Positions 31,924 through 32,737 of a stretch of DNA of 64,000 nt are shown one piece after another. Below the pieces are notes generated by a model. That model was not told the origin of the DNA and did not search any database. It was given only the letters and a program-made list of their open reading frames with translations. Each line of letters begins with the position of its first letter. Position 1 is the stretch's first letter. Made by a program: the position numbers and the translations under genes. The DNA is taken from the sequence record PQ471516.1; one strand, given 5' to 3'. The DNA is from Escherichia phage Turkey5.

Positions 31924-32017
31924 AAATCCCCTCTTAACTAATTCCTATTGAAATATTTATGCGTTAGTTTTTCAGTGCAGGAACTAAGTACTTTTTCATA
32001 AAAAAATCACATAATAC

Positions 32018-32046
32018 TGAGACACTTTTAAAAAATGTGCTATAAT
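32018..32046 (+). promoter_or_regulatory. Sigma70-type promoter (TGAGAC-17 nt-TGcTATAAT) firing into ORF-free region
   Basis: -10 block GTGCTATAATGTTTATTG nearly identical to the clpA-like promoter block GTGATATAATGTTTATTA. Confidence 0.45.
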
Positions 32047-32052
32047 GTTTAT

Positions 32053-32499
32053 TGTAGTAATGACAATCCTGTTGAATGCAGAAATGCATATAAATTAGAA
32101 CCTGATCCTATCGAAAATGTAGATGGCAGATGAGCAGTTCAACAGTGCGATGAGCAAAAGAAACCCGTCAGATGTGGGCATAGTTTGAACCCCTCACGGC
32201 AATGCGGCTCAATAAAGAACTCCGATAAGATACAGAGAGTTCCTCGATAGACATATAAGGTAAATTCCTTACCAGATTATCTAAGGGAGTTTTTGATTTA
32301 TTTCAAAAACAGCTTGAAGTTTGATTGTATAGACTTTCAAGTGAGTGTCAGGATGTTTAAGACTGACGACCGTTGCATATGACTGCGATAGAGAGAAACA
32401 GAGCAACCCGCTTTCGTTCTTAATTAATTAAGAAATTCGCAATACAATAATTCCGATGCCATCAGCGTCAAGATTAAGAGACTTCATTGTCTCTTTTTT
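32053..32499 (+). ncRNA. Candidate non-coding RNA (~450 nt) bounded by promoter and terminator; identity unknown
   Basis: No ORF longer than ~21 codons and none with an RBS between promoter 32018-32046 and terminator 32476-32500; several local hairpins; extent is a guess. Confidence 0.25.
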
Positions 32500-32500
32500 A
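32476..32500 (+). terminator. Rho-independent terminator (GAGAC-TTCATT-GTCTC + TTTTTTATT)
   Basis: Hairpin 32478-32493 followed by T-run. Confidence 0.5.
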
Positions 32501-32701
32501 TTATCTTCATTCCCCTGCGGGGGGATGAAATATCCTCAACAAATCCCGTCAAGTATTAAATCATTTAAAGTTCTTTATAATTATATTAAAATGAATATGA
32601 GTTACGTCAGTAACGAATATTCTTCATCTAACGAATGAAATGAGTTAGATGAGTTCAATATAATCTTTCTAGTATAATTCAAATCATCATAAATTAGATA
32701 C

Positions 32702-32727
32702 AAAAAAACCAGCAATAGATGCTGGCT
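32702..32727 (-). terminator. Rho-independent terminator of leftward operon
   Basis: Inverted repeat CCAGCA/TGCTGG (32709-32714/32720-32725) followed on the minus strand by TTTTTTT. Confidence 0.55.
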
Positions 32728-32737
32728 TAGTAGTGAG

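Follow-up and report, generated by a model that had tools for sequence, protein, structure and literature searches.

A large non-coding RNA with covarying helices and three pseudoknots, present as several paralogues in RaK2-like jumbo phages

In the 64,000-nucleotide (nt) stretch of Escherichia phage Turkey5 analyzed here (PQ471516.1, hereafter the window), covariation among homologues showed that the plus strand of a gap between protein genes (31924-32737) carries a large non-coding RNA gene, which runs from ~32054 to 32500 in a short form or to ~32553 in a long form, with at least 17 helices and three pseudoknots. An initial annotation, made from the letters alone and without database searches, had read this gap as a dedicated structured non-coding RNA of no recognized class, and this reading is now supported by covariation, with neither a conserved open reading frame (ORF) nor an Rfam match. 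The finding is in fact stronger than that first reading could see, since the RNA is one of several paralogues per genome and its conservation continues past the terminator.

Results

The secondary structure was built by hand from an alignment of 43 distinct members (53-92% identical), using an all-against-all search for stacked, compensating column pairs in which each helix was checked, and the resulting model comprises 76 pairs in 17 helices, including the pseudoknots PK1, PK2 and PK3. Standard pairs were formed in 95.6% of the 3234 cells, compared with 79.0% when partners were shuffled among the sequences (none of 500 shuffles reached the observed value) and with 40-44% when the 3′ partner was slid by 1-3 columns. 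Changes on both sides were found in 54 of the 76 pairs, and compensatory cells numbered 532 versus 140 after shuffling and 37-62 after sliding. Examined for compensatory change, as the initial annotation had proposed, the relatives thus gave a strongly positive result. Five helices (H3, H4, PK3, H11 and H12) were 100% paired in 43 of 43 members, with two to four pair types per position. PK1, H1 and H14, which were mis-registered by MAFFT, were tested without the alignment: PK1 forms an 8-base-pair (bp) helix in 28 of 43 members (mean 7.07 bp versus 4.29 bp with strands taken from different members), and the hairpins H1 and H14 fold in 42 and 40 of the 43, respectively.

G-U pairs are frequent, e.g., at 32393:32413 (GU 32, AU 11), 32321:32332 (UG 34, CG 9) and 32346:32368 (UG 36), and since they would be A-C mismatches on the opposite strand, they indicate that the plus strand is the RNA. 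Thermodynamic folding alone does not separate the strands (z = -3.76 versus -3.50). The minimum free energy of the region is -130.4 kcal/mol (z = -3.76 relative to shuffles) and the G+C fraction is 0.41 within the gap versus 0.27-0.30 at its edges, in agreement with the stable hairpins and G+C-richer interior described initially. In addition, the alignment contains about 80 invariant positions and about 75 others with a conservation of 90% or more. Many of these fall in junctions rather than in helices, as would be expected if the RNA had a precise tertiary fold, an active site or a binding site.

The conserved core, from the inferred start through H14 and the repeat S1 (32054-32472; this and all features of the RNA below lie on the plus strand), is supported by covariation and is conserved down to ~53% overall identity, and its invariant unpaired blocks include AUGAG, AGAAACCCG, CGGCAAUGCGGC, GAUAGACAUAUAAG, UAAGGGAG, GACCGU and GAAACAGAGCAACCCGC. 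The 5′ pseudoknot domain (32069-32148) is organized by PK1, which pairs 32069-32076 (CUGUUGAA) with 32138-32145 (UUCAACAG, in the loop of H3) around H1 (32076-80:32085-89, with a GAAA loop) and H2 (32102-04:32127-29, 32107-08:32125-26 and 32110-12:32122-24; conserved loop GAAAAUGUA, 90% paired, seven of eight pairs covarying), H3 itself being 32134-36:32146-48 (three pair types). The central helices (32151-32271) are H4 (32151-55:32207-11, four of five pairs covarying), which encloses H5 (32165-68:32196-99, 100% paired, with a variable insert), followed by H6 (32217-22:32237-42, 93-100% paired, with covariation in every pair) and H7 (32256-60:32267-71, 96-100% paired). After H6 and H7 come the invariant UAAGGGAG and then a variable linker, which is short in the window and reaches ~100 nt with extra hairpins in other copies. 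The 3′ pseudoknot domain (32313-32448) holds H8 (32313-22:32331-41), whose loop takes part in the loop-to-linker pseudoknot PK2 (32324-30:32442-48; 7 bp, 99.7% paired, seven of seven pairs changing on both sides), H9 (32346-51:32363-68, followed by the invariant GACCGU), H11 (32384-88:32437-41) and H12 (32391-95:32411-15), both crossed by PK3 (32372-76:32403-07) and each of these three with 3-4 covarying pairs, as well as H13 (32417-23:32428-34). H14 (32455-59:32465-69) has the conserved loop CAUCA.

The coding tests gave a contrary answer to that expected of a protein gene. When ORFs of at least 60 amino acids (aa) were counted on both strands, 31924-32455 was the sole uncovered stretch of at least 250 nt in the window, which bears out the ORF-free island recognized initially; shorter ORFs within the gap reach 41 aa, in addition to a 60-aa ORF at 32456-32638. 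Among 42 homologues, ORFs of at least 20 codons occur on both strands and in inconsistent places, and none is shared in position, frame or strand. The indels do not come in multiples of three, and column conservation shows no three-base periodicity (rank 165 of 219 frequencies). The refuting alternative named in the initial annotation, a small ORF conserved in a codon-like manner, was thus looked for in the homologues and not seen. Note that public records treat the locus differently. Escherichia phage vB_EcoM_JNE01 (OR670491.1, 355,583 bp, genus Asteriusvirus; hereafter JNE01), 99.4% identical to the window over 31800-32850, carries two hypothetical coding sequences (CDSs) here, WOL22777.1 (minus strand, 31957-32088, over the promoter and the RNA 5′ end) and WOL22778.1 (plus strand, 32524-32637, over the 3′ module described below), and a small minus-strand CDS, WOL22957.1, overlaps its RNA copy at 266,952-267,495; all three are probably annotation artefacts, since none is conserved. 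The locus is left empty in the records of phages G17, 121Q and PBECO4. The record of Escherichia phage UE-S1 shows a 158-bp 'repeat_region' (311,350-311,507) within its RNA copy, given there without explanation, which may reflect paralogous copies detected by the annotation pipeline.

At gathering thresholds, Rfam 15 (4227 families) gave 0 matches in the whole window and 0 in five paralogue-carrying loci, and thus none to RNase P, transfer-messenger RNA (tmRNA), 6S, group I/II introns, GOLLD, ROOL, OLE, raiA, HEARO or the self-cleaving ribozymes. The initial annotation had proposed such a search for group I/II introns, GOLLD, ROOL, tmRNA, RNase P and 6S, and its outcome is consistent with an unassigned class. 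With E-values up to 10 on 31800-32850, five weak matches appeared (Trp and Thr leaders, a small nucleolar RNA and two small RNAs), which scored 14-22 bits against thresholds of 41-70 and all lie in 32468-32793, outside the covarying core. ARAGORN found neither a transfer RNA (tRNA) nor a tmRNA gene in the window. Several resemblances noticed by eye were also followed and rejected: (i) for the RNase P conserved regions (ACGACC..GC and AGAGAG..AAAC..CCGC), the helices do not fit and no model scores; (ii) for a hammerhead core (CAGAUGAG, CGAAA and GUC-A sites), the helices misfit, the equivalents of U4 and A14 differ and no model scores; (iii) for a hairpin-ribozyme loop B (AGAGAAACA), the helices misfit, G+1 is U in phage RaK2 and no model scores; and (iv) for a group I-like P3-P7 topology of PK3 and H11, there is no P4-P6 domain between the strands and H12 is an extra crossing helix. 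Full-text literature on RNA in such phages yielded no description, and a catalogue of 10,006 viral RNA candidates (PMC10690425) might hold parts of the family. Judged by these sequence comparisons, the RNA is a new class, outside every catalogued family, and its likeness to known RNAs is generic only.

Upstream of the RNA, a consensus scan identified a sigma-70-type promoter at 32019-32046 (plus strand), composed of GAGACA (32019-32024), a 16-nt spacer and the extended -10 element TGcTATAAT (32038-32046), from which we infer a transcription start at ~32053-32054. Promoter-like matches are not enriched in the region (7 found versus 6.6 expected). Across the homologues, the -10 element matches at least five of the six positions of TATAAT in 43 of 43 and all six in 36, the TG extension is present in 35, and the promoter is aligned upstream of every RNA copy, so that the promoter proposed initially is confirmed by scan and conservation. 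The similarity of its -10 block to that of a clpA-like gene, also pointed out initially, holds at 16 of 18 positions (GTGCTATAATGTTTATTG versus GTGATATAATGTTTATTA at 4443-4460, 33 nt upstream of a ClpA/B-type AAA+ gene at 4493-6778). Besides that of the RNA, two promoters in the window carry nearly the same extended -10 block (GTGATATAATGT...), the one at 4443-4460 and another at 59659-59676, and the shared block looks like the early-promoter consensus of the phage. A host-type -10 element conserved in 43 of 43 homologues argues for transcription by the sigma-70 polymerase and hence, by inference only, for probable early expression of the RNA.

The hairpin H15 (AAGAGAC/GUCUCUU, 7 bp) followed by U6 at 32476-32500 has the form of a terminator, in a region where four terminator-like sites were found versus 0.9 expected, and a short isoform of ~447 nt probably ends there. 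The initial annotation took this hairpin and T-run as the end of the RNA, which stands as far as the 7-bp hairpin and T6 are concerned and fails in that conservation continues to ~32553 and the hairpin occurs in only 22 of the 43 members. Examined as an independent small-RNA-type transcription unit, the family therefore keeps its promoter throughout, keeps its terminator hairpin in about half of the members and is conserved beyond it. H15 is an optional module of the family. Of the 14 copies oriented toward a convergent gene, 10 have it, namely the window copy and nine other members adjacent to an endonuclease VII gene. Since H15 stands mostly where a convergent gene follows, it would act as a real terminator added where needed, outside the core. 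In the group of copies represented by the first JNE01 copy, a different, strong hairpin of terminator type followed by U8 (GGUGAUAGCAGAGUUGUUAUCACC-UUUUUUUU, JNE01 ~8,090-8,140) separates the conserved -10 element from the RNA core; polymerase starting at the promoter of these copies would reach a terminator within ~45 nt, and H15 is absent there.

The conserved element extends past H15 to ~32553 through a 3′ module (32507-32553) kept in all copies, which consists of H16 followed by a tail ending in the repeat S2. H16 is a G/C hairpin (32507-15:32520-28, UCAUUCCCC-UGCG-GGGGGAUGA), 86.6% paired, mostly with C or U opposite G, and its motif occurs once in the window. Since every copy conserves H16 and S2, even where they follow H15, either read-through transcripts or another function of this segment must matter. 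The small ORF that JNE01 annotates in this module, with an AUG at 32525, was rejected, as the start codon is unconserved and indels shift the frame. The last ~180 nt of the interval marked in the initial annotation (31924-32737) lie outside the conserved element: about 32554-32737 is an AT-rich, unconserved spacer that also holds the minus-strand terminator (32706-32728) of the neighboring 70-aa gene.

The repeats S1 (32461-32472, AUCAGCGUCAAG) and S2 (32543-32553, AUCCCGUCAAG) are direct repeats that co-vary by identity and not by complementarity. Indeed, positions 32462/32544 are concordant in all members (UU 34, CC 9, discordant 0), as are 32467/32548 (GG 41, UU 2, discordant 0), and 32471/32552 has a single discordant case (GG 26, AA 16, GA 1). 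The CC state at 32462/32544 is found in six separate identity clusters, and JNE01 copy 1 is UU when its orthologue in 121Q is CC and the remaining 121Q copies are UU. Paralogues in one genome can thus differ in their S1/S2 state, which indicates that the two repeats are constrained within a single molecule. A search by mutual information and by direct complementarity for a third strand able to pair with S1 and S2 found none. S1 and S2 could possibly be two sites of one active center, realignment repeats of a copied template, crossover cores or parts of base triples. As minus-strand -35 boxes, they were rejected on reading the sequence, which offers no -10 element at usable spacing.

A sensitive BLASTN search with the gap matched 71 phage records, with 4-5 matching places in most of them and 2 in the RaK2 group. 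In Asteriusvirus genomes the match covers almost the entire gap, and distant genera match only ~32099-32563 (query ~176-640) at ~70% identity; the latter include Cronobacter phage GAP32, Pectobacterium phage CBB, Serratia phage BF, Yersinia phage fHe-Yen9-04 and several Erwinia, Salmonella and Klebsiella phages. Two Xanthomonas phage records also match, and Klebsiella phages RaK2 and K64-1 match in the 3′ part. In the distant genera conservation is limited to the RNA, and the flanks of the gap show none in this search. A profile search of JNE01 (covering ~88% of the genome outside the window) located four copies, all on the plus strand, at ~8, 64, 149 and 267 kb (8,060-8,641; 63,998-64,630; the window copy, which spans 31997-32583 of the window in this search; and 266,952-267,495), in agreement with the four BLAST places for this record, and no second copy was found within the 64-kb window. 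Identity to the window copy is 63-73% for the JNE01 paralogues. Yersinia phage fHe-Yen9-04 has its best match in a paralogue elsewhere in the genome and not in the endonuclease VII-adjacent copy, the two being ~75% identical to each other.

Pattern scans of IMG/VR found 3-4 loci per jumbo contig of 345-378 kb and members only on RaK2-like jumbo contigs or their fragments, and a looser pattern of invariant positions returned only further copies from the same contigs. A 14-base core pattern run on 185,579 bacterial and archaeal genomes (596 Gb) gave at least 120 matches, with only 2 true members among the matches listed, both on contigs of Enterobacterales metagenome-assembled genomes that are probably phage DNA. 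In the collections searched, sequence comparison thus shows the family to be confined to RaK2-like jumbo phages of Enterobacterales and the two Xanthomonas phage records. Copy positions are syntenic between genera: JNE01 copy 1, for example, is preceded by a gene whose protein is homologous to RaK2 ORF445, itself located upstream of a copy in RaK2. No common neighboring protein emerged from the genes flanking the four JNE01 copies, which are unrelated to one another; copy 2 is preceded by a DUF7325 protein. Directly upstream of copy 4, JNE01 265,958-266,920 encodes a sigma-70-family protein (Pfam Sigma70_r2 and r3) recorded as hypothetical. The two RaK2 copies do not have the H5 insert domain, and their near-identity to each other is limited to the 3′ half and does not extend to the 5′ half, a pattern suggestive of a recent gene conversion event between paralogues.

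Discussion

We favor, with some confidence and largely by analogy, the view that this is a stand-alone RNA particle, made early and acting in trans, of the same general kind as ROOL and GOLLD. According to this proposal, the host RNA polymerase with sigma-70 would transcribe the RNA from its own extended -10 promoter soon after infection, most transcripts would end at H15 where a convergent gene follows (as in the window), and read-through past H15 would add the H16-S2 module. The RNA would then act in trans as a folded particle, either as an RNA-only assembly or as a protein scaffold, as suggested for GOLLD and ROOL, or possibly as a catalyst. PK2 may be compatible with pairing within one molecule or between molecules, and its 7-bp loop-to-linker helix would be the obvious candidate for a bridge.

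The family has the features of the large ornate phage RNAs, being phage-encoded and longer than 400 nt, with many covarying helices, pseudoknots and no coding potential. With GOLLD and ROOL, it shares a length of several hundred nt, several pseudoknots, a variable linker and the lack of an associated protein gene. Covariation first revealed loop-to-linker pairings in GOLLD and ROOL, and these proved to be intermolecular bridges in homo-oligomeric cages (PMC12286853). PK2 is a pairing of this same type. The differences are nevertheless substantial: the family matches neither Rfam model; it measures ~450-500 nt, whereas the ROOL studied has 659 nt and many GOLLD RNAs exceed 800 nt; it has four to five diverged paralogues per genome; and its hosts are Gram-negative Enterobacterales infected by lytic jumbo myoviruses. 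GOLLD and ROOL often lie by tRNA islands, whereas the JNE01 copies do not (the nearest tRNA is ~13 kb away, with tRNAs at 246-254 kb).

A nearer parallel in terms of host phage comes from PA5oct, a Pseudomonas jumbo phage sharing core genes with 121Q, RaK2 and GAP32, in which RNA sequencing defined four non-coding RNAs (ncRNA001-004) as ORF-free plus-strand loci of 236-619 nt, two of them accounting for 1-5% of the phage reads at each sampled infection stage (PMC7318152). This abundance indicates that relatives of a Turkey5-type phage do express abundant long non-coding RNAs. For ncRNA001 (1264-1499) and ncRNA002 (14952-15402), the two that were compared, nhmmer --max found no sequence similarity to the family, and the PA5oct RNAs also differ in that neither a structure nor a multi-genome family has been described for them. 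Another precedent for how PK2 might work is the phi29 pRNA, an early phage-encoded structured RNA whose covarying loop-loop pairing is intermolecular and builds a ring. The pRNA is, in contrast, ~174 nt long and present as a single copy at the genome end, it has no sequence or fold similarity to the family, and the phages considered here have T4-like packaging genes.

Several observations weigh against a trans-acting particle. First, for all members, expression, its timing and both ends of the RNA are deduced from sequence. Second, a trans-acting or assembly function is argued by analogy, and there is no conserved neighboring protein and no adjacency to tRNA genes. Third, H16 and S2 are conserved though they lie downstream of the terminator in half of the copies. 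Fourth, in copy 1 (JNE01 8060-8641) and two aligned members of the same type, a terminator-like hairpin with a U-run stands right after the promoter, which is odd for a strongly expressed RNA. Finally, 17 of the 21 copies without H15 have a same-strand gene 20-160 nt downstream, an arrangement that fits a cis-acting leader too.

Such a leader, in which the folded RNA modifies its own polymerase (processive antitermination, as by HK022 put RNA or EAR) or controls downstream read-through, with the hairpins at its borders as checkpoints, is the first alternative to be considered, and we regard it as unlikely. Beyond the same-strand genes, it would account for the terminator-like hairpins at the 3′ border (H15, in 22 of 43) or at the 5′ border (the copy-1 group), and for the conservation of H16-S2 beyond the terminator, from which read-through seems important. 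On the other hand, the copy next to the endonuclease VII gene runs toward a convergent gene, in the window as in nine further members, and is thus a stand-alone gene with nothing in cis to activate, unlike put and EAR, which are co-directional with an operon and upstream of it. In addition, the genes downstream of the different copies are unrelated, and the RNA, with ~450 nt and three pseudoknots, exceeds the known antiterminator RNAs several-fold in size (put is ~65 nt and EAR ~120 nt).

The concordance of S1 and S2 raises a further possibility, rather doubtful in our view, in which the RNA would be of a self-acting class, S1 and S2 being sites of one active center (either a self-processing ribozyme that excises or circularizes the H15-H16 segment, or a template whose start and realignment sites resemble those of telomerase RNA or the DRT2 non-coding RNA), or in which the four to five paralogues would form a multi-subunit assembly. 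Note that we found no described counterpart either for identity-covarying repeats in a structured RNA or for the multi-copy paralogy.

An origin-primer RNA appears improbable. Here each copy would be a replication origin, whose transcript hybridizes near the G-rich 3′ part and is processed into a leading-strand primer. ColE1 RNA II and the promoter-dependent T4 origins oriF and oriG combine a promoter, a long structured transcript and a G-rich element near the possible hybrid point, and the family shares this combination. The four to five copies spread over a 355-kb genome, the host-type promoter at each copy, the G6 run and hairpin close to the 3′ end, with strongly AT-rich DNA (G+C 0.27) after them, the RNase HI annotated in the JNE01 record and the position of the window copy beside recombination and replication genes (gp46-like protein and endonuclease VII) would all be in keeping with it. 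However, these known systems have no counterpart of the pseudoknotted core or of the invariant unpaired bases, and to our knowledge origin transcripts need neither an elaborate fold with three pseudoknots nor ~80 invariant unpaired nucleotides; the family is without an antisense regulator; no iterons or unwinding element are conserved beyond general AT-richness; and H15 would stop the transcript before the G-run in half of the copies.

Finally, a decayed or unusual protein gene, or a repeated DNA element (recombination or protein-binding site) under DNA-level selection, is largely refuted and hardly tenable: H16 and S1/S2 are conserved by sequence and not by compensation, which could mean DNA-level recognition, and two tiny CDSs are annotated in the gap in JNE01, but the coding tests above are all negative, and only selection on a single-stranded plus-strand transcript explains the 54 double-sided compensatory pairs together with the strand-specific G-U pairs.

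New classes of large, intricately folded bacterial or phage RNA are rare, and each of the earlier ones (RNase P, group I/II introns, OLE, GOLLD, ROOL and HEARO/omega RNA) proved to be a catalyst, a guide or an RNA-only machine. The present family is tractable, with a fold defined by about 44 diverged sequences, a simple host-type promoter and cultured Escherichia coli phages (121Q, PBECO4, phAPEC6 and JNE01), and its identity-covarying repeats offer a concrete experimental handle. The anciently duplicated, multi-copy state means that the phage invests ~2 kb of its genome in this RNA, at loci that current records leave blank or fill with spurious small 'hypothetical proteins'.

Neighboring genes and relatives

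Over 31800-32850, phages 121Q, PBECO4, phAPEC6 and other Asteriusvirus members are 83-87% identical to the window, and from sequence comparison the source genome is an Asteriusvirus jumbo phage, RaK2-like. The gap is flanked on one side by the endonuclease VII-like gene (31432-31923, minus strand), which has a weak Pfam match (PF02945) and is annotated as endonuclease VII in related records, and on the other by the 70-aa ORF (32738-32950, minus strand), beyond which the next gene is of a T4-baseplate family. The gp46-like gene (29267-31414, plus strand) is convergent with the endonuclease VII-like gene, and between the two lies a 10-bp G+C-rich hairpin with flanking A and T runs (31421-31444), probably a bidirectional terminator; the G17 and UE-S1 records annotate a terminator at the equivalent place.

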